A stretch of DNA of 64,000 nucleotides from positions 15,495-79,494 of the forward strand of contig CAZUZO010000002.1 of NCBI GenBank assembly GCA_964624765.1, written 5' to 3'. Source of the DNA: an uncultured Thiotrichales bacterium (GTDB lineage Bacteria > Pseudomonadota > Gammaproteobacteria > HK1). Both the position numbers and the translations under genes were made by a program. How positions within the stretch are numbered: position 1 is the first letter of the stretch; each line of letters starts with the position of its first letter. The notes beneath the pieces were generated by a model. It was given only the letters and a program-made list of their open reading frames with translations. It did no database searches and was not told the origin of the DNA. Of this stretch, positions 10,759 through 52,557 are shown piece after piece.

Positions 10759-12858
10759 TCAAAGCTTCAAGCGTGCGATGTAGTCCGCCAGCCGCGCTGT
10801 GGCTTCCTCGAGGTCGCGCTGGCCCTGCTTAAGTTCGGCGTTCAGCTCTTCCAGTTGGTTTTCTTGGGTATCCAGTTTCTGGAGGTACCGCCTATACAGA
10901 TCGCTATCGCTGGAAACACGAGTTAAGTTTTCGCGAAGGCGCTCCTGGTCGTCGAAGATGCCTGCTCGGGTTGCGCTGAGCCGATCGACGCGCTGGCGCT
11001 GGTCATCCACTTCCCGATGTAGCCTGGCCATCTCGACAAAGGCTTGGCGCACGGGTTGGTCGAGCTCGGTCGAGCGTGCATAGCCCAGTATTCGGTCTAA
11101 CGAGAGCGATCGGATCTGGATTTGCTCGGTTTCAGGATGCTCTAAATGCACATCCAGAGTACTCTCGCTGCCGCCTGGCAAACGGACGGGGATGCGATAG
11201 CGGTCGTCGGTGAGTACGACCGGTTTCTCCTCCATGGCGATGAGCTGCCAACCGGGACGGCGCGGGTGCTCGATGAGTAGCTGACGCTCCTCGTGCTCCG
11301 GGGCTTTCATACGGTAGGTCGTCGTCTCGCGTCGCACCACTGTCAAGCGCAGAATGCCGCGGTCAATGGTGGCTTGCGCGATGCTGCGCTCGGATTTGAC
11401 CTCTTTGCTGATGCGGGTTCCTTGATCGACAGCGAAGCTCACCAATCGCTCGTCGCCGGCGGGCCAGGTGCCAAGCTGGGCATCGCCGACAAAAGCGAGC
11501 TTCTCGTTACGCGCCCGTTCATAAAGGGCCAGGATTCCCGCTGGCAGGGCGGCAGGACCGTCATTGACCAGTTGTACTGCGGCAAGCGGATGGGTCTGAT
11601 GTGTTTCATGTTGGTATAGCGACAGCCGGGTAACGGGTATTTCCCGGTTCGCAATCGGTACCACCAAGGATTGTCCGGTTGGCACGCTGACCGCAATGGG
11701 CAGGCGAAACAGGACCTGGGCCGCAAGGTCCTCGCTGTCGGCGACTGCTTGAGGCTGTAGACGGTCAGTCAGGGGGCTCGAAACGTCAGCCTGTTTGGTC
11801 GGCGACGTCGCAACTGATAACTCTTCAGACAACATCCTCAGATGAGTACGTTTGTCTTCGGATCGGAGTGCTGCTCCGGGAGCCTGTGGGTGGGTCTGGG
11901 AGGTGGCGGATAAGGGGGCCAGCCCCAGGGTTCCCGAATCCGGCACCGGCAGCACCCGACCCAACACCTCTACCGGGACCGCCGGCCGGTCGACGTAATA
12001 GCTGGCATAAACCGCCTGGCGAAAGGTGACAGGGTTTCCGGAAACCAAGGACAGCTCCACATCGGCCCAGTCGTGGCCACTCATGTTTTCGAGCACCGCA
12101 AAGCCCCGCAGGGATCCTTTGCTGGCGCCGTCCCTCTTGTCGAGAGTCAGCCGGTAGCTGGTTTTCCACAGCGGGGCTGAGACCACATAGCCAACGCGTA
12201 CCGCCCTCCTGCCATTGCCCGCAAAGGTGATGCGCAGCGTACGTTTGTCGCGCAGCCGATGGTGTGCTATCGCCGTCAGCGCCTGATCCAGCTGGCGCCC
12301 TAGCGCAGGATCGACGAACCTCACGGCATCGGCCTCCTCGAACAGGAAGTGGCGCACTCCGTCCGCTGTCAGCAAGCTGATTCGGTGTTGGGTGATGGTA
12401 CCCTGGTTACCCGCTAGGACAGCGGTTTCCGGAACCACACGCAGGAGACGGCCCTTGAGTTGGCGCTGTCCCTTGGCCTCCACCTCGGCGCCTTGCAAAG
12501 CGTTAAAGAGAGCCAGCGGGGAGCTCAAAGCGTCCTGAGTAAACGGTAGATCGCGAAAGATATGCGTCAACGGCTCGCGACCGGGGAGGCCGATGGTCGC
12601 CATGTCGCCGCTGTCGTCCTGCACGATGAGGCTTTTCAACACATCGTCGACCTGCTCCAGGGGTACCTCAAGATGCAGTTCAGCATTGCCTTCTATCAGC
12701 GCTTCGTGCTCGAAATACCCGACCCCTCCGGTGGAGAGCATGACCCGCTTGAGGGACAGCGGGTCGGCCGCTGCACCGACCGGTAGTAACAGGGCAGCAA
12801 GCCAAAAGCCTATGCATAAGACGCAATGCGATACGCCAGTCATTGACGTGTTTCTCAT
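10759..12858 (-). CDS. DUF4139-type protein (MuiA-like), secreted, C-terminal coiled coil
   Basis: 699 aa with signal peptide (GFWLAALLLPVGAAADP). The long beta-rich body and terminal coiled coil (LQKLDTQENQLEELNAELKQGQRDLEE) resemble DUF4139/DUF4140 proteins. Assignment is by recollection only. Confidence 0.7.
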   Translation of the reverse strand: MRNTSMTGVSHCVLCIGFWLAALLLPVGAAADPLSLKRVMLSTGGVGYFEHEALIEGNAELHLEVPLEQVDDVLKSLIVQDDSGDMATIGLPGREPLTHIFRDLPFTQDALSSPLALFNALQGAEVEAKGQRQLKGRLLRVVPETAVLAGNQGTITQHRISLLTADGVRHFLFEEADAVRFVDPALGRQLDQALTAIAHHRLRDKRTLRITFAGNGRRAVRVGYVVSAPLWKTSYRLTLDKRDGASKGSLRGFAVLENMSGHDWADVELSLVSGNPVTFRQAVYASYYVDRPAVPVEVLGRVLPVPDSGTLGLAPLSATSQTHPQAPGAALRSEDKRTHLRMLSEELSVATSPTKQADVSSPLTDRLQPQAVADSEDLAAQVLFRLPIAVSVPTGQSLVVPIANREIPVTRLSLYQHETHQTHPLAAVQLVNDGPAALPAGILALYERARNEKLAFVGDAQLGTWPAGDERLVSFAVDQGTRISKEVKSERSIAQATIDRGILRLTVVRRETTTYRMKAPEHEERQLLIEHPRRPGWQLIAMEEKPVVLTDDRYRIPVRLPGGSESTLDVHLEHPETEQIQIRSLSLDRILGYARSTELDQPVRQAFVEMARLHREVDDQRQRVDRLSATRAGIFDDQERLRENLTRVSSDSDLYRRYLQKLDTQENQLEELNAELKQGQRDLEEATARLADYIARLKL

Positions 12859-13029
12859 AACCGGTTCCCATGGCGCATGGTAAACTGATTTTAACGCGGA
12901 TGATCCACTCGTTACCTGGGTTGCATAATACTCTTAGCGTGCTGGGCAAAGCACGTGGTTGCCGGGGGTGGGGTGCGATCGGAGGGGAGTGGATAAGCCG
13001 TTGGGGAAACGAAGACCGAGGCTTTCTTA

Positions 13030-13172
13030 GAAGCTGTTTTAAAAACGTCGCGGGCGCCTCCAGAGCAAGGCGCACGGCGGCTCAGAACCGCAGTGTACGA
13101 CCGAGTACATGAGGATTCTGAGCCGCCGTGCAACGCCGCTCAGACAAGCGCAGTCGTTCTTGAACCAGCTTG
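13030..13172 (+). mobile_element. type-1 inverted-repeat element, short form (143 bp)
   Basis: GAAGCTGTTTTAAAAACG...CCAGCTTG. It contains a perfect 16-bp internal stem (13072-13087 / 13116-13131) and is flanked by TTA (13027-13029) and TTA (13173-13175). Confidence 0.85.
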
Positions 13173-13184
13173 TTATAGGCGGAT

Positions 13185-15369: not shown

Positions 15370-16227
15370 CTAAGGACTCTCGGGCACCCGCCGCCTCTTC
15401 TCCACATCTAACTTAAGTATAAACCGTTGCAGGCGCGCCGCCATGCGTGAATCGAGGCGCAGAAACCGGCACCCAATCTGGGGTTTTCCAGGCCGCGCGC
15501 TGTGCGCATAGCGATTGCGTACCTCGAAGCCTGTCTCGAGTGAGCCTTGACCCGGTAGCTCGATATGGCACACAGGGATCTGCTGGCCGATCGCCAGCAT
15601 CGGCTCGGGAATGTCCTCGGGGACGATCAAGCCCATACCGCTGAGACTGATATCCACCACGGTCACTTCGCAAGTTGCTCCGTCCGGAGCGCGGAAGCGA
15701 CAGATCAGCGGATTGGCCACCGGTGTGGCGACGCGAAAGAACTGTCGGCGTTGCACTCGGATCAAGGCATCTGGCTCCGGAACCGCGAAAGCCGGATAGT
15801 CTTGCTGTTCCGCCATGGCAAGGTGGGCGATACTAAACCGGATCGGCACTTGATTGTGGGTGGTGACGGCGATCCTCTGTTGGGCGTGCAACAAGCGTTG
15901 ATTGGCGGTTTCATCTGTGCTGCAGTCGAGATAAACGACTGCTGTCTTCGGGTCGTAGCCGATGACAGCGCTCAAGATGAAATCTTGGCCCGCATCGAAA
16001 TAGATCGTGATTTGCCGGTTATGGCGCGCGAGATCCGAAAGAATACGTTGGATCGTGACCTTATCGCGAACCCGGAACCGTTCGAGATCAGATTCCATAT
16101 CGGGTGATGGCTTAGTGGGTAGAGTGGGGGGTGCTGTCATGATGTGAGGGTGTTGCCAGGGGCTCTGCAAAATTCTAACAAACTCAACGCTGTTTTTTGT
16201 CGCAGAATCGCCTAAGGCATACGTCAT
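15370..16227 (-). CDS. YcgR-like flagellar brake / c-di-GMP-binding PilZ protein (start uncertain)
   Basis: PilZ motifs RRQFFR and DISLSGMG, preceded by a PilZN-like domain. Alternative ATGs are at 16140 and 16098. Confidence 0.8.
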   Translation of the reverse strand: MTYALGDSATKNSVEFVRILQSPWQHPHIMTAPPTLPTKPSPDMESDLERFRVRDKVTIQRILSDLARHNRQITIYFDAGQDFILSAVIGYDPKTAVVYLDCSTDETANQRLLHAQQRIAVTTHNQVPIRFSIAHLAMAEQQDYPAFAVPEPDALIRVQRRQFFRVATPVANPLICRFRAPDGATCEVTVVDISLSGMGLIVPEDIPEPMLAIGQQIPVCHIELPGQGSLETGFEVRNRYAHSARPGKPQIGCRFLRLDSRMAARLQRFILKLDVEKRRRVPESP

Positions 16228-16310: not shown

Positions 16311-16431
16311 GAGGTTGTCAAAAAACCGGCGCGAGCGGGCCGCGGCGACGGAACCTATCAGATAGATAGGCGAGGAGTGAGCACCGCCCAACGCCGCTAT
16401 CGGGTGGTGTAGCAGGTTTCTTCACAACCTC
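16311..16431 (+). mobile_element. type-2 inverted-repeat element (121 bp; core arm on the left, as in type 1)
   Basis: GAGGTTGTCAAAAAACCGGCGCGAGCGG...CCTATCAGATAGATAGG...GCAGGTTTCTTCACAACCTC. TGA lies at 16308-16310 and, offset by 1 nt, at 16433-16435. Confidence 0.85.
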
Positions 16432-22775: not shown

Positions 22776-22925
22776 GAGTTGAGTCTCTCAGAGAACCGTC
22801 GCAAGCGGGCCGAGAGAGCTAGGCGGATGGCGTGAAGCTGGGAGACATAATCAGGTAGATAGGCGAGCCGCCGAGCACCGCACAACACCGCTGCCGCGTT
22901 ACGTAGCGCGTTTTTTCAAAAGCTC
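22776..22925 (+). mobile_element. type-2 inverted-repeat element, left terminus degenerate (150 bp)
   Basis: GAGTTGAGTCTCTCAGAGAACCGTCGCAAGCGGGCCGAGAG...GGTAGATAGGCGAG...GCGTTTTTTCAAAAGCTC aligns along its whole length with the reverse complement of 42074-42214. TGA lies at 22773-22775. Confidence 0.7.
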
Positions 22926-23951: not shown

Positions 23952-24168
23952 GAAGCTGTTCTAAAAATGTCACGAGCGCCGCCAGAGCAAGGCGCACGGC
24001 AGCGAGACAAAATCGTCCGGAACGATTTTGAACAGCCGCAGGCTGGCTCCGAGGGAGCGAGCCTCAGGGATGGGGCGAGTAACGCGGAGTGTACAAAGGA
24101 GTACATGAGCATTTCGAGCTGCCGCGCAACGCAGCTCAGGCAAGCGCAGTAATTTTTAAAACAGCTTC
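23952..24168 (+). mobile_element. type-1 inverted-repeat element, long form (217 bp)
   Basis: GAAGCTGTTCTAAAAATGTCACGAGCGCC...GCAAGCGCAGTAATTTTTAAAACAGCTTC. TGA lies at 23947-23949 (2 nt offset) and at 24169-24171. Confidence 0.9.
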
Positions 24169-25517: not shown

Positions 25518-27413
25518 ATGACTTTTAGCCGAGTGGCTAAGACTGAAGTGAAGGACCGCGATCGCCGGCAACGTTTCGAATGGGTTACGCGGGCGGCGAC
25601 GCGGGCGCTTGCCCAGCGCAAAGATCTCAGCGTTGAGTTCCGGCATGCCCGTGCCACCATCGAGAACAATACGGTGTATTTGCACGCACCCTCCGTACAG
25701 GTGACTCCATCGGACGTCATTCGTCTGCGCGGAGAAGCGGATTCCTTGGCGCTGCAGGTGCGATACCATGATCGCGCTTTGCATGAGGCATTGGCACCGG
25801 GTGAGTCGAGTGCTCGGGAGGTGTTCGATAGCTTGGAGCAAGCTCGCTGTGAGGCCCTGGGGGCGCGGCGAATGGTGGGGGTCGCGGCCAACCTCGAGGC
25901 GTGGCTCGCCGCTCGCTATCGAGACGCGGCCGAGCGCGAGCCCCTGAAGCCAAATGCCTTGCGTTTGCCTGACTCGGTGCAACTCATGGCGCGGGAGGCC
26001 ATGACAGGCAGTCCTCCCCCGGCGCCGGCTGCACGCCTGCTCGATACCCAGCGACGGGAGCTCACACCCAAGATCGGTGGCGCTTTGGTGCGCCTCAGCC
26101 GAAACCTCTCAGACCAACGGCGTTTTGCCGAGATCGTGATGGAAATCTTGGTGGCCCTTGGCTTGGATGTGACGGCGGCATCGGATTCCGTCGAGCGGGA
26201 AGCTCCGGACGAGCCAGAACAGGGAGGAGAGGAATCCGACCCCCAAAGCGCCGAATCCATGGCAAGTGAGGCACAAGGTGGCCCGCCTAAGGCGCTGGAA
26301 GATCAGCATCGGCTTGACTCAACAACGGCTCATGGTATGAGCTCGCACCAGGAGCCTGATGGAATCTCTTCACCGGGGGCGGCGGAGCAGCGTTGGATGC
26401 CGAAGGATACGCCTGCCGGTGTCTGGAGATCGGTGAACTGCAGTGCATCGTCCAGCTACCGTGCCTACATGACGGATTTTGACGAGGTGGTCCATGCACA
26501 ACAGCTTTGCACCCAGGAGGAGCTGGCCCGCTTTCGTTCGCATCTGGATCGGCAGGTCCGCGATTTTGATGCCATGATAGGACGATTGGCCAACCGCCTG
26601 CAGAGGCGGCTGCTGGCCAAACAGCTGCGCGGCTGGCAGTTTGATAGGGAGGACGGTTTCCTCGATACGACCCGCTTGGCGCGTCTGGTGGCGAATCCCC
26701 TAAATCCCGTTGCCTACAGGTGGGAACAAGAAACAGCGTTTCAAGATACCGTTGTGAGCTTGCTCATCGATAACTCCGGCTCGATGCGTGGACGGCCGAT
26801 CACCGTTGCCGCCATCAGCGCCGATGTGCTCGCGCGAACCTTGGAGCGATGCGGGGTCAAGACCGAAATCCTGGGTTTTACCACGCGGGCTTGGAAGGGA
26901 GGGCAAGTGCGTGAGCGCTGGATCGAGGGCGGCAAGCCAGCGAATCCAGGTCGATTAAACGATCTACGACATATCATCTATAAGTCGGCTGATATGCCTT
27001 GGCGGCAAGCCCGAAGCAATCTCGGGCTGATGCTGCGGGAGGGGCTCCTGAAGGAGAACATCGATGGTGAGGCACTGACATGGGCCTATCAGCGGTTGCT
27101 CAGGCGTCCTGAAGAGCGACGTATCCTGATGGTTATCAGCGATGGAACGCCAGTGGACGATTCCACTCTGTCAGCAAACGGTGCCGGGTACCTGGAGCGG
27201 CATCTGCGGGAGGTCATCGCGCACATCGAGAATACCCGCTCGGTCGAATTGCTGGCCATTGGGATAGGTCATGATGTGACCCGCTACTACCGTCGTGCCG
27301 TGATGCTGGCGGATGCCGAGCAGTTGGGGGGCGTCATGCTGCAAGAGCTTGCCGGCTTGTTTGATAGTGAGTTAACTCACCCGCGACACCGGTGGCGTCA
27401 CCCTCTCCGTTGA
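25518..27413 (+). CDS. cobT: CobT-type protein with C-terminal vWA domain (cobaltochelatase subunit CobT family)
   Basis: Track ORF starts at TTG 25449, but ATG 25518 preceded by GGGGG is preferred. CobT N-domain ([16 protein letters not shown]...[18 protein letters not shown]), acidic linker, and vWA ([14 protein letters not shown]). Confidence 0.8.
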
Positions 27414-27420
27414 CCCCTGA

Positions 27421-27637
27421 GAAGCTGTTTTAAAAATGTTACGAGCGCCGGCAGAGCAAGGCGCACGGTGGCGACAAAATCGTCGGGAACGATTTTGAAC
27501 AGCTGGAAGCTGGCCCCGAAGGGGCGCGCCCCAAGGATGGGGCGAGTAACAACCGGAGTGTACAAGGGCGTACATGAGGATTGCGGGCCGCCGTGCAACG
27601 CAGCTCAGGCAAGCGCAGTAATTTTTAAAACAGCTGC
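27421..27637 (+). mobile_element. type-1 inverted-repeat element, long form (217 bp)
   Basis: Starts 8 nt after the cobT stop. Flanked by TGA (27418-27420) and TGA (27638-27640). Confidence 0.9.
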
Positions 27638-27831
27638 TGAAAGGTCTTGAAAACCGGCTATGATCGCCGTCTCGGCACCCTGAATCGACCTGTCTCTCGG
27701 ACATGGTAGCCAACCCGGCGGCGCACGGGATGTCTGGTGGGCACGGGCCGTCGGCTTGAGCCCGGTATTCCTGCCGGACACACCCCGCGGCTCCCATGGC
27801 TTGGCGCCGCTTCGCCGTTTGGCGGGAACCC

Positions 27832-27876: not shown

Positions 27877-28017
27877 GAGGTTGTGAAAAAACCTGCTACA
27901 CGACCCGATAGCGGCGTTGGGAGGTGCTCGCTCCTCGCCTATGCATCTGATAGGTCTCTCGGCTTCGCGCCGTCCGCCTGGCTCTCGGGCCGTTCGCGAC
28001 GGTCTTTCTACAACCTG
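27877..28017 (-). mobile_element. type-2 inverted-repeat element (141 bp; orientation opposite to the type-1 core arm)
   Basis: GAGGTTGTGAAAAAACCTGCTACACGACCCGATAGCGGCGTTGGG...CGTTCGCGACGGTCTTTCTACAACCTG. Flanked by TCA (27874-27876) and TCA (28018-28020). It ends 5 nt before the ABC ATPase ATG. Confidence 0.9.
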
Positions 28018-42073: not shown

Positions 42074-42214
42074 GAGCTTGTGAAAAAACCTGCTACACAG
42101 CCCGATAGCGGCGTTGGGCGGTGCTCGCTCCTCGCCTATCTATTTGATATGTCTCGTCGCTGCGCGCCGTCCGCCTTGCTTTCGTGCCGCTCGCGACGGT
42201 TTTTTCACAAGCTC
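42074..42214 (-). mobile_element. type-2 inverted-repeat element (141 bp, perfect 17-bp termini)
   Basis: GAGCTTGTGAAAAAACC...GGTTTTTTCACAAGCTC. Flanked by TGA 42071-42073 (the stop codon of the M16 gene) and TGA 42215-42217. Confidence 0.9.
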
Positions 42215-46094: not shown

Positions 46095-46310
46095 GAAGCT
46101 GTTTTAAAAATGTCACGAGCGCCGGCAGAGCAAGGCGCACAGCGGCGACAAAATCGTCTGGAACGATTTTGAACAGCTGCAAGCTGGCCCCGAAGGGGCG
46201 AGCCCCAAGGATGGGGCGAGTCACCACCGGAGTGTACAAGGGAGTACAGAGGATGGCGAGCCGCTGCGCAACGCAGCTGAGGCAAGCGCAGTAGTTTTTA
46301 AAACAGCTTC
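46095..46310 (+). mobile_element. type-1 inverted-repeat element, long form (216 bp)
   Basis: Full architecture. Flanks are TAC (46092-46094) and TAA (46311-46313). It ends 24 nt before the transporter ATG. Confidence 0.9.
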
Positions 46311-46334: not shown

Positions 46335-47582
46335 ATGCTGTTACAGGGGCTTCTCGGATTGATTGTCATCATCGGTACCGCTTGGCTGATGAGCGAGGAT
46401 CGTCGTGCGATACCGTGGAGACCCGTTCTCGGGGGGCTCGTGCTGCAGTTCGCTCTAGCGACGCTGCTCCTTAAAGCGCCGTTATTCTACGCGGTTTTTT
46501 CCCAGCTTCATGACATCCTGTTGTCTTTGATTGAGGCCACTCGTGCCGGAACGAGCTTTGTTTTCGGATTTCTGGGGGGTGGACCGTTCCCTTTCGAGGC
46601 GACCCATCCCAGCGCAAGCTTTGTGCTGGCCTTTCAGGCCTTGCCGCTTATTCTAGTCATGAGCGCGCTTTCGGCATTGCTTTTCTATTGGCGCATATTG
46701 CCGTTGGTCGTCAGGGGGTTTGCATTACTGCTGCAGAAGACCCTTGGTATCAGCGGTGCAACCGGCCTCAGTGCGGCAGCCAATGTGTTGCTCGGTATGG
46801 TGGAAGCTCCGCTGCTAGTGCGTCCTTATCTCGAGCGACTGACGCGCGGGGAGCTATTCATGTTGATGAGCTGCGGTATGGCGACCATCGCTGGCACGGT
46901 CATGGTGCTTTATGCCAGTATCCTGGTGGAGGTCATCCCTGGGGCTATGGGGCACCTGCTCAGCGCATCAGTGATCAGTGCGCCCGGCGCGATCGTTATC
47001 GCTGCGTTGATGGTCCCGCCGGGTACCGAGGATCCGAACGGCAACCCCGTCACCATCGAACTGCCGGCCAGCAGCAGCATGGATGCCATCACGCTTGGCA
47101 CCCTGCAAGGGATCAATCTGGTTCTCAATGTTGCCGCCATGCTGATCGTCTTGATAGCCTTGGTGAGTCTTGCGAATCAATCCTTGGCGTTGCTTCCGCC
47201 CATCGGTGATGCACCGATTACCCTGCAGCGCATTCTAGGTTGGGCGATGGCACCTTTGGCTTGGCTGTTGGGTATTCCATGGCTGGAGGCGGCGACAGCA
47301 GGCTCTCTGATGGGAACCAAGCTGGTCCTCAACGAACTGATCGCCTATATCGAGCTCGCGCAACTCTCGCAGGAAGCACTGAGTGATCGAAGCCGCCTCA
47401 TCATGGTCTATGCGATGTGTGGGTTCGCTAATCTCGGTAGCCTGGGGATTCTTATCGGTGGCCTTGGCTCGATGATTCCAGCTAGGCGAAAGGAGATCGT
47501 GAGTTTAGGCCTAAAGGCTGTCCTCGCAGGGACCCTGGCCACTGGCTTGACAGCGCTGATAGTTGGCCTCTATCACCTTTGA
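46335..47582 (+). CDS. NupC/NupG-family (CNT) nucleoside transporter
   Basis: 415 aa, polytopic. GGAGG precedes the ATG. The N- and C-terminal CNT domain pattern includes SFVFGFLGG and LNELIAYIEL. Confidence 0.85.
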   Translation: MLLQGLLGLIVIIGTAWLMSEDRRAIPWRPVLGGLVLQFALATLLLKAPLFYAVFSQLHDILLSLIEATRAGTSFVFGFLGGGPFPFEATHPSASFVLAFQALPLILVMSALSALLFYWRILPLVVRGFALLLQKTLGISGATGLSAAANVLLGMVEAPLLVRPYLERLTRGELFMLMSCGMATIAGTVMVLYASILVEVIPGAMGHLLSASVISAPGAIVIAALMVPPGTEDPNGNPVTIELPASSSMDAITLGTLQGINLVLNVAAMLIVLIALVSLANQSLALLPPIGDAPITLQRILGWAMAPLAWLLGIPWLEAATAGSLMGTKLVLNELIAYIELAQLSQEALSDRSRLIMVYAMCGFANLGSLGILIGGLGSMIPARRKEIVSLGLKAVLAGTLATGLTALIVGLYHL

Positions 47583-47725
47583 GAAGCTGTTTTAAAAATG
47601 TCACGAGCGCCGCCAGAGCAAGGCGCACGGCAGCGAGAAAGCGGAGTGTACAAAGGAGTACATGAGCATTTCGAGCTGCCGCGCAACGCAGCTCAGGCAA
47701 GCGCAGTCATTTTTAAAACAGCTTC
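47583..47725 (+). mobile_element. type-1 inverted-repeat element, short form (143 bp, perfect 18-bp termini)
   Basis: Begins immediately after the stop codon TGA 47580-47582. TGA is repeated at 47726-47728. Outside the 74-nt length difference it differs from 23952-24168 by only 2 substitutions. Confidence 0.9.
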
Positions 47726-50850: not shown

Positions 50851-51056
50851 TCCGATATCTATCTATCTATGTTGGAAGAAGTCGCTTCAGCGGACGGCTA
50901 ACCGCCGCCGCTGAGCTTTGGCGTTATCGCGCCGGGACAAGCTCGGCGTATCTTACGGGGTGAGAGTCCCCGTTGGGAAAGGGTTAGCGGCTCCCCATAT
51001 CGAGTGTTGGACCTGTGGCGGAGCACCCAAGTGGTAAGGAGGACTGCGAGAGGAGC

Positions 51057-51265
51057 GAACAAAACAGGTTAAGCGTACACAGAGAATCCTGTAGCGCGTA
51101 GCGGCGACAAAAGCGTCAACGACTTTGAACAGCGTTAAGCTGGCCCCGAAGGGGCGAGCCCCAGGGATGGGGCGAGTAACCCCCGGAGTGTACAAGGCAG
51201 TACAAGTATGGCGAGCCGCTGCGCAACGCAGCTCAGGCAAGCGCAGTCGTTATTAAAACAGCTTC
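51057..51265 (+). mobile_element. type-1 inverted-repeat element, long form with scrambled left end
   Basis: From GCGGCGACAAAAGCGTCAACGACTTTGAACAGC onward it aligns with the other long copies. The right end is ...GCAAGCGCAGTCGTTATTAAAACAGCTTC followed by TGA. Confidence 0.8.
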
Positions 51266-52343: not shown

Positions 52344-52557
52344 CAAGCTGTTTTAAGAGTGTCGCGAGTACTGGCAGAGCAAGGCGCACGACGGCGACAA
52401 AATCGTCTAGAAGGATATTGAACCGCTGGAAGCTGGCCCCGAATGGGCGAGCTCCAAGGATGGGGCGAGCAACTACCGCAGTGCACAAACGGGTACAGGA
52501 TTATGAGCCGCGGCGCACCGCCGCTCAGGCAAGCGCAGCAATTTTTAAGACAGCTGC
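52344..52557 (+). mobile_element. type-1 inverted-repeat element, long form, most divergent copy (214 bp)
   Basis: CAAGCTGTTTTAAGAGTGTCGCGAGTACTGGCAGAGCAAGGCGCAC...GCAAGCGCAGCAATTTTTAAGACAGCTGC, followed by TAA. Confidence 0.85.

Follow-up and report, generated by a model that had tools for sequence, protein, structure and literature searches.

The 64,000-nucleotide window analysed here, which is the whole stretch from position 15,495 to 79,494 of contig CAZUZO010000002.1 from an uncultured Thiotrichales bacterium, carries seven copies of a repeat element, all found on the + strand by a repeat search. The element is a non-coding MITE (miniature inverted-repeat transposable element) that duplicates a TNA trinucleotide at its target, and base pairing within one strand of it is under selection; both statements are made with high confidence. 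Copies are retained with a bias towards the orientation in which the + strand of the element is sense to neighbouring genes. The combined reading, a MITE whose pairing is selected and has a mainly RNA-level role, is held with somewhat better than even confidence. The selected strand may be RNA or single-stranded DNA.

Compensatory changes across the genome

The host genome is a gammaproteobacterial metagenome-assembled genome (MAG) of 3.39 Mb in 218 contigs, with 59% GC. Profile searches located the element on both strands of it, at about 428 loci that make up roughly 2% of the sequence, a density of about one per 8 kb. A high-scoring full-length set of 164 copies comprises 59 of a short form (143 nt) and 105 of a long form (217 nt).

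The whole element is an imperfect palindrome, and every intact copy folds as a single long bulged rod at -75 to -107 kcal/mol, the short copies lying at -75 and the long ones at about -100. In the long form, four small hairpins are added on the 5′ side of the apex as a nested module of 75 nt. The consensus sequence gives the same rod as its minimum free energy fold, which served as the basis for the structure; default RNAalifold on large MAFFT alignments gave fragmentary structures.

Covariation in this fold was measured in several ways. Mutual information with average product correction returned mostly subfamily linkage among its top pairs (of the ten highest, stem pairs made up 3 in the short form and 2 in the long), although in the top 50 stem pairs are about 25-30 times enriched, 7 and 5 against expected values of 0.27 and 0.17. 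Because linkage dominates mutual information, slid-partner, random-partner and tree-aware controls were adopted. For the two partner controls, a pair was called compensated if a second, fully different Watson-Crick type occurs in at least 6 copies. The short form has 6 such pairs and the long form 10, compared with 0-1 in either when the 3′ partner is shifted by 1-7 columns, and none of 1000 trials with random partners reached the observed counts.

The tree-aware null used a FastTree tree, with the parsimony changes of each column placed anew on random branches in proportion to branch length. With types required in at least 4 copies, 8 compensated pairs are observed in the short form (null mean 1.3, maximum 5) and 13 in the long form (null mean 3.7, maximum 9). 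Covariation thus exceeds the phylogenetic expectation, a comparison set beforehand, in that 0 of 400 simulations reached the observed counts. An earlier note, made from the sequence of the window, had proposed selection on a folded single strand from a handful of copies; the proposal is borne out by compensation above all three nulls and by its recurrence in sister families and other genera. Examples of covarying pairs, in short-form numbering, are:

Pair 47:98: GC 32, AT 17, GT 7
Pair 50:95: GC 43, AT 12
Pair 56:89: CG 34, AT 13, GC 11
Pair 57:88: AT 41, CG 17
Pair 59:85: CG 46, GC 12

Six covarying pairs (47:98, 49:96, 50:95, 55:90, 56:89 and 57:88) lie within the stem that the earlier note described. 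At least five perfectly complementary haplotypes of this stem are found: GGCGG/CCGCC, GGCAG/CTGCC, AGCGG/CCGCT, GGTGG/CCACC and AACGG/CCGTT. Some haplotypes are common to both forms of the element: GGCAG/CTGCC occurs in 12 short and 6 long copies, AGCGG/CCGCT in 7 of each form. This implies either several gains or losses of the module or recombination between copies.

The stem and its copies in the window

The stem was described in the short-form copy at 13030, the parts of which are as follows.

13030-13172 (+): short-form type-1 MITE copy of 143 nt that holds the stem; TIRs (terminal inverted repeats) GAAGCTGTTTTAAAAA / TTCTTGAACCAGCTTG
13072-13087 (+): 5′ stem arm, family positions 43-58
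13116-13131 (+): 3′ stem arm, exact reverse complement of 13072-13087
13093-13110 (+): apical hairpin GTGTAC-N6-GTACAT, with a closing G·T that is nearly fixed family-wide

The 5′ arm reads GCACGGCGGCTCAGAA and the 3′ arm TTCTGAGCCGCCGTGC, so that the perfect 16-bp pairing claimed for this copy is confirmed by the sequence read. Two helices of the consensus fold, 43-52 and 55-58, are merged here as a single perfect helix. The stem is perfect because pair 45:100 (13074:13129 in this copy) is A-T. At this pair the family consensus is an A·C mismatch, with A-T, as in the 13030 copy, or G-C as minority states; it is the sole high-frequency mismatch that would read G·U on the minus strand. The apical closing pair, 64:81, is GT in 56 of 59 short and 92 of 105 long copies. 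The target duplication on either side of the copy is TTA (13027-13029 and 13173-13175).

The other six copies in the window, with the module of one of them, are:

23952-24168 (+): long-form copy, 217 nt, between two + genes; stem CGGCAGC/GCTGCCG
24007-24083 (+): nested four-hairpin module of the 23952 copy, ACAAAA-H1-TTTTGAAC-H2-H3-GA-H4-GAGTAAC
27421-27637 (+): long-form copy; TGA duplications at 27418-27420 and 27638-27640; module 27474-27550
46095-46310 (+): long-form copy; stem haplotype CAGCGGC/GCCGCTG; module 46148-46224
47583-47725 (+): short-form copy; left TGA flank 47580-47582
51099-51265 (+): long-form copy with its left end replaced; adjoins a group II intron-like fragment, 50963-51098
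52344-52557 (+): divergent long-form copy; bears most of the A·C mismatches of the window

An alignment of the seven copies reproduces the heptamer pairs that had been listed, namely CGGCGGC/GCCGCCG at 13030, CGGCAGC/GCTGCCG at both 23952 (long) and 47583 (short), which have an identical stem haplotype, CAGCGGC/GCCGCTG at 46095 and CGGTGGC/GCCGCCG with one T:G at 27421. The double change in the module from GCCCC-GAA-GGGGC to GCTCC-GAG-GGAGC in the 23952 copy was recovered in both the repeat search and the alignment, and the alignment also contains the T:G pairs at about 24061-24076 and 52451-52466. In module 24007-24083, H3 is GCTCC/GGAGC and H4 is GCCTC/GGGGC with one T·G. For the window's four intact long copies RNAalifold gives 69 pairs, of which 6 are changed on both sides with pairing kept; one-sided changes amount to 8 G·U and 4 A·C. 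The earlier count of a single A:C was too low, as 3 of these four are in the 52344 copy and the fourth, a C·A, is in the TIR of the 23952 copy.

All seven copies had been said to point the same way as the + strand genes around them. This holds for six; the exception is the 13030 copy, the spacer of which is divergent, with a - gene at 10759-12858 on one side and a + gene from 13185 on the other. The 27421 copy begins a few bases past the stop of a + gene ending at 27413, and the left TGA flank of the 47583 copy is the stop codon of the + gene at 46335-47582. Directly abutting the 5′-truncated copy at 51099-51265, positions 50963-51098 (+) match the group II intron domains D1-D4 of RF02005 at 40.5 bits (cut-off 49; E=4e-8).

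Ends, target duplication and candidate partners

The TIRs are 17 bp long (GAAGCTGTTTTAAAAAT and its reverse complement), and pairs 1-17 are Watson-Crick in >85% of copies. The trinucleotides that flank the element are identical on both sides in 100 of 156 copies (41 of 57 short, 59 of 99 long). They are TAA, TTA, TGA or TCA, so all four middle bases occur, and shifted registers give 0-1 matches. As the two sides are identical and not complementary, TNA is a target-site duplication and not part of the TIR. No open reading frame (ORF) consistently spans the element among the ORFs of the window. The TIRs, the TNA duplication and abundance without coding capacity together identify the element as a MITE. 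A REP/REPIN (RAYT) or IS200/IS605-type identity of the whole MITE is ruled out by the TIRs and the TNA duplication; Y1_Tnp genes are present in the host genome.

Two insertion sequences (IS) in the same genome have ends that resemble those of the MITE. An IS5-family IS (NCBIfam NF033580) on contig C138 has the end TAA|GAAGCTGTTTGG and has in common with the MITE the first 10 nt of the TIR (GAAGCTGTTT only), plus the TAA flank. An IS982-type remnant on contig C4 has the right end TTAAAACAGCTTC|TTA, with a 13-nt match to the other MITE end. These two are candidate partners, judging by their terminal sequences; the full MITE TIR was found on neither in searches of this fragmented assembly. At C4:4000-5700 a second IS, an IS4/IS5-like ORF that runs on the other strand, has truncated the 5′ side of the IS982-type gene. 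In ISfinder, TNA duplications are assigned to IS5 subgroups.

Sister families

A type-2 sister family is also present in the window:

42074-42214 (-): type-2 copy; its - strand core is homologous to type 1, with termini of GAGGTTGTGAAAAAACC type
27877-28017 (-), 16311-16431 (+) and 22776-22925 (+): further type-2 copies

The apical hairpin of type 2 is CCTATC/GATAGG, unlike that of type 1. The core is common to type 2 and to a family in G009, a genome of another genus in the same family, at about 77% identity, and the termini differ. G009 is a 7-Mb genome (loci L043-L062) in which the sister MITE has TIRs GGGGACCTCTAAAAA and a 4-bp target duplication of variable sequence. With different TIRs on a shared core, the structured core has therefore changed termini.

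Across the families the apical hairpins differ yet are compensated (GTGTAC/GTACAT, GTGTAT/ATACAT, CCTATC/GATAGG). Transversions in the stem region are likewise compensated between sister families, as in GCGCACGG..CCGCGC compared with GCGGACGG..CCGCCC. The MITE family itself is borne by two congeneric genomes, G001 and G002. An exact scan of GTDB representatives for the 3′-end motif found it elsewhere only in two MAGs labelled 'Gammaproteobacteria bacterium', both of them congeners.

The nested module in other genomes

The four-hairpin module is related to RF02902 (AaHKsRNA22). Full-length matches to this model (positions 1-101) were obtained for 59 long-form modules, all on the + strand, at 27-37 bits. 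The best score, 37.3 bits, is under the 39.8-bit gathering cut-off; Rfam at gathering thresholds gave no match in the window, and RF02902 was seen only in permissive searches.

When a whole long copy was compared by blastn with 5426 E. coli genomes, only positions 57-132, the module, were matched. Beside pgi in E. coli, an ERIC-like (enterobacterial repetitive intergenic consensus) repeat has an insert with 80% identity to the module; relatives of this insert are in 683 of the 5426 genomes. It was also found in 8 of 400 gammaproteobacterial genomes scanned.

Of 18 module sequences from 8 genomes, 17 fold singly into the same four hairpins. The linkers are constant (ACAAAA, TTTTGRAC, GA, GARTM), and the stems of H1, H2 and H4 are very different yet complementary. 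This comparison consists of single-sequence folds, since a MAFFT alignment misaligned H2-H4 and was left out of the pair counts. Pairing that is kept with differing stems in distant genomes shows selection on pairing across independent lineages.

Outside the MITE genus the module adjoins tRNA-Ser, tRNA-Arg or tRNA-Leu genes in the same orientation (L064-L076, at about 1500-1600 of each locus; genomes G174, G023, G182, G307 and G371). It often lies inside a partial or duplicated tRNA copy, placed in the T loop exactly between TTCGA and AATCC or, at L068 and L076, in the D loop; its borders are free of duplication. In G362, where copies score above the RF02902 cut-off (L063, L071, L074, L080-L082), AAGTGCGGT immediately precedes the module; this is the DNA uptake signal sequence of Pasteurellaceae. 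Y1_Tnp (PF01797) is over cut-off in 10 of 10 module-bearing genomes (G000, G001, G002, G009, G174, G307, G362, G023, G182 and G371) and in 6 of 14 controls, with several marginal scores.

Orientation and strand asymmetry

In tandem spacers, those that separate co-oriented genes, the + strand of the element is sense to the genes in 61 copies and antisense in 30 (p=0.0015). The bias is similar in the short (25:10) and long (36:20) forms and holds for genes on either replication strand. No bias in orientation was seen relative to the replication strand as given by GC skew (64:53 and 57:50). Random orientation relative to transcription would have spoken against the RNA interpretation of the earlier note; genome-wide the distribution is biased, and it is also far from uniform, with one third of these copies antisense. 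Of the gene 3′ ends facing an element, about 27% abut it, the stop codon doubling as the TNA flank, and many copies must therefore be co-transcribed.

The sense and antisense strands had also been named for a comparison of folding energies. Folded as RNA, the + strand exceeds the - strand in stability by 2.95 kcal/mol in short and 1.74 in long copies. The transcript-sense strand is the more stable one in 57 of 91 copies (p=0.002) and is better by 2.5 kcal/mol on average, an advantage within nearly equal strands.

Wobble pairs distinguish the two strands, since a G·U on one is an A·C on the other. They were counted at pairs with a Watson-Crick consensus of >=80%. Sense copies have GT 85 and AC 48, antisense copies 33 and 52, which gives an odds ratio of 2.8 (bootstrap confidence interval, CI, 1.6-4.8; label-permutation p=0.0014), or about 2 after adjustment. 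In either orientation the preferred mismatch is the one that an mRNA would carry as G·U. When copies are divided by replication instead, those with the + strand on the G-rich strand, corrected for gene orientation, have GT 87 and AC 43, and the others 49 and 84 (odds ratio 3.5, p=1e-6); the effect is also present in non-tandem spacers (p=0.019). Given its tie to the replication strand, the wobble asymmetry must come at least in part from the folding of single-stranded DNA or from strand-biased mutation.

Products of transition-rate ratios were compared between the element and other sites:

Four-fold degenerate sites: replication 1.475, transcription 1.10
Tandem spacers (TG/CA): transcription 1.03
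Paired columns of the element: replication 2.21 (CI 1.6-3.1), transcription 2.08
Unpaired columns of the same copies: replication 1.10, transcription 1.15

Mutation bias explains part of the wobble signal, though probably not all of it.

Weighing the explanations

The sense-strand RNA reading of the earlier note stands in part. It is favoured by the 61:30 orientation, by the stability of the sense strand and by a wobble preference that flips with gene orientation, whereas the tie to replication is stronger and a third of the copies are antisense. An RNA-level role is also favoured by the gene 3′ ends that abut elements and by the + strand match of the module to an sRNA family obtained from RNA-seq. 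A number of observations count against an RNA-level role. The 30 antisense copies among 91 in tandem spacers are joined by 52 copies in convergent or divergent spacers, and the two strands fold within a few kcal/mol of each other. Scans of the elements found no promoter-like or terminator-like signals above shuffled expectation. In a joint logistic model replication has a coefficient of 0.68 (CI 0.39-1.13) and transcription one of 0.35 (CI 0.04-0.66). The bootstrap probability that paired columns are no more asymmetric than unpaired ones is borderline, at 0.047 for replication and 0.12 for transcription. Congeners, represented by 860 kb of two genomes with only 12 classifiable copies, give an orientation of 5:7, which is not significant, and a wobble table (6 and 4 over 7 and 16) of the same sign that is not significant either. 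Gene calls came from a crude codon-usage caller of our own, and the replication strand was taken from local GC skew on the short contigs of a fragmented MAG. Paired columns are moreover not less variable than unpaired ones (5.4% and 4.9%), so that strong purifying selection on single copies is not in evidence. A single copy is only weakly constrained, and it is in the founders of subfamilies that compensation is strong.

One alternative is that the selected fold is single-stranded DNA that extrudes on the lagging-strand template and is needed for, or tolerated by, a DNA transaction. MITE transposition, movement of the module by an HUH/Y1-type enzyme specific for single strands, or the avoidance of palindrome processing would be candidates. 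This is a serious possibility, judged somewhat unlikely. It would account for the preference of G·T over A·C following the G-rich strand, which is the lagging-strand template, for its persistence in spacers without a defined direction of transcription, and for a replication effect about twice that of transcription in the joint model. It also fits the asymmetry of stems (2.2) over loops (1.1, P=0.047) and four-fold sites (1.475). The apparent repeated gain and loss of the module, with borders free of duplication and haplotypes common to both forms, its fixed point of insertion in tRNA T or D loops of other genomes, and the Y1_Tnp homologues in all ten module-bearing genomes point the same way. 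Against this, orientation is unbiased with respect to the replication strand (57:50) and biased with respect to transcription, and the replication strand is known from GC skew on short contigs only. Y1_Tnp genes are common, several matches being barely over cut-off, and TIRs with a TNA duplication suggest a DDE transposase acting on double-stranded ends. We know of no DDE transposase that requires an internal hairpin. A broader form of the idea, considered unlikely, combines a fold selected as single-stranded DNA with a 75-nt module that is an independent, structure-dependent mobile unit, inserting without duplication and in one orientation into exposed loops; the MITE core would then be cargo with changed termini (type 1, type 2 and G009). 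Examples of its targets would be this MITE, ERIC repeats and, throughout Gammaproteobacteria, tRNA gene copies at their T and D loops, and an HUH/Y1-type enzyme might act on the lagging-strand template.

Pairing could also be kept without selection on function. Correction of quasi-palindromes is an established mutational mechanism, and template switching from arm to arm might correct this one, with the asymmetry produced by strand-biased mutation (C-to-T and A-to-G on the exposed strand). It agrees with the lack of any greater conservation in the stems than in the loops of single copies, with the sign of the wobble asymmetry, which matches the mutation pressure behind GC skew, and with the replication-linked TG/CA of 1.475 at four-fold sites. 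Copying would however erase the A·C at 45:100, the bulges and the unequal internal loops, all of which persist in most copies and subfamilies. Nor does it sit well with the 5-bp hairpins of the module, which pair with differing sequences in eight distant genomes while linkers stay constant, as expected of structural selection. The stem asymmetry of 2.2 (CI 1.6-3.1) exceeds that of both loops and four-fold sites, and tandem spacers are nearly without sense-strand skew (TG/CA 1.03). Pairing kept in this way is judged unlikely. It is hardly credible that compensation is a subfamily artefact, in which linked substitutions are inherited without any constraint on pairing. The pairs of highest mutual information are indeed mostly linked markers, yet stem pairs are strongly enriched in the top 50 and the same pattern is found in independent genomes; this reading is rejected because controls that keep kinship never reach the observed number of compensated pairs.

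Selection probably acts mainly on proliferating lineages: variants that define subfamilies are compensated, and private mutations strike stems as often as loops. Weak selection in place may be added, as G·T is preferred to A·C on one strand. Under the preferred reading of a mainly RNA-level role, most copies would be co-transcribed with the upstream gene, the rod and the module forming RNA structure in 3′ or intercistronic regions. By analogy with other repeats, a bulged duplex of roughly 60 bp in transcripts might serve as a target for RNase E or RNase III, or might hold up 3′-exonucleases. Well-folded, sense-oriented copies would be those tolerated and propagated. The same sequence folded as single-stranded DNA on the lagging-strand template could add to the wobble signal and may even dominate it.

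Relation to known repeats

Several families of bacterial repeats resemble the element in part. ERIC, about 127 nt long, is an imperfect palindrome of intergenic DNA; it has TIRs, lies mostly in transcribed regions and has orientation-dependent effects on mRNA via RNase E (PMC3184786, PMC10969869). The ERIC or IRU repeats of Enterobacteriaceae, Vibrionaceae and Pasteurellaceae are like the present MITE in palindrome and TIRs, and long ERIC forms have an internal insert of roughly 70 nt. The MITE differs in its other TIRs, in TNA and not TA flanks, in its far greater density and in a core without detectable similarity to E. coli DNA: blastn against the 5426 E. coli genomes gave no similarity for the core, only for the module.

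The closest precedent for compensation among MITE copies is bcr1 of the Bacillus cereus group. As summarized in PMC3184786, citing Klevan et al. 2007, it is a MITE-like repeat of about 155 nt that is transcribed and makes target duplications, and compensatory changes keep its predicted RNA structure. Going by that summary, bcr1 differs in belonging to Firmicutes, in its 5-bp duplication and in forming a two-stem-loop cruciform rather than one long rod, and the sequences are unrelated.

The Correia element (NEMIS, CREE) of Neisseria is an abundant, co-transcribed palindromic MITE of 104-157 nt, the TIR duplex of which RNase III cleaves (PMC10969869). Transcripts of Correia and ERIC are acted on by RNase III and RNase E (PMC10969869, PMC3184786). 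Correia is a mechanistic model for the 60-bp bulged RNA rod, and cleavage of the present element by RNase III is proposed only by this analogy. Correia differs in its TA duplication and in the IHF (integration host factor) site and promoter elements of some copies, and its sequence is unrelated.

MITEs of the IS5 superfamily (IS5/IS1031-type, with Tourist/PIF-Harbinger in eukaryotes) are alike in the TNA duplication with all four middle bases, in short TIRs and in being non-coding. For the module the relative is RF02902, a family derived from an RNA-seq screen for small RNAs (sRNAs) as Aggregatibacter sRNA 22 (PMC5909427). It has the same four hairpins and linkers (ACAAAA, UUUUGAAC, GA, GAGUA); by contrast, the module is nested inside a MITE and not free-standing, and scores under the cut-off.

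Meaning of the family

The element is thus a new family of a known type, that of folding, co-transcribed and compensated MITEs, in an uncultured lineage where it is unusually abundant and suited to statistics. As far as can be told, what is new here is the tree-aware test of covariation, the division of wobble by strand for transcription and replication, and the relationship to RF02902. Bacterial MITEs are often drawn as RNA hairpins, and evidence of a selected fold is rare and mostly anecdotal (bcr1 and some work on ERIC). The 164 full-length copies in one genome, with the sister families, suffice for a tree-aware test and for the question of the strand.

The wobble signature tracks both transcription and replication, and it suggests, in a form open to testing, that folded single-stranded DNA plays a role. 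The module ties together an uncultured gammaproteobacterium of soil or sediment, the long ERIC form of E. coli, an Aggregatibacter sRNA family and insertions adjacent to tRNA genes. It may be a widespread structured unit that is held in databases only as one species-specific sRNA family.

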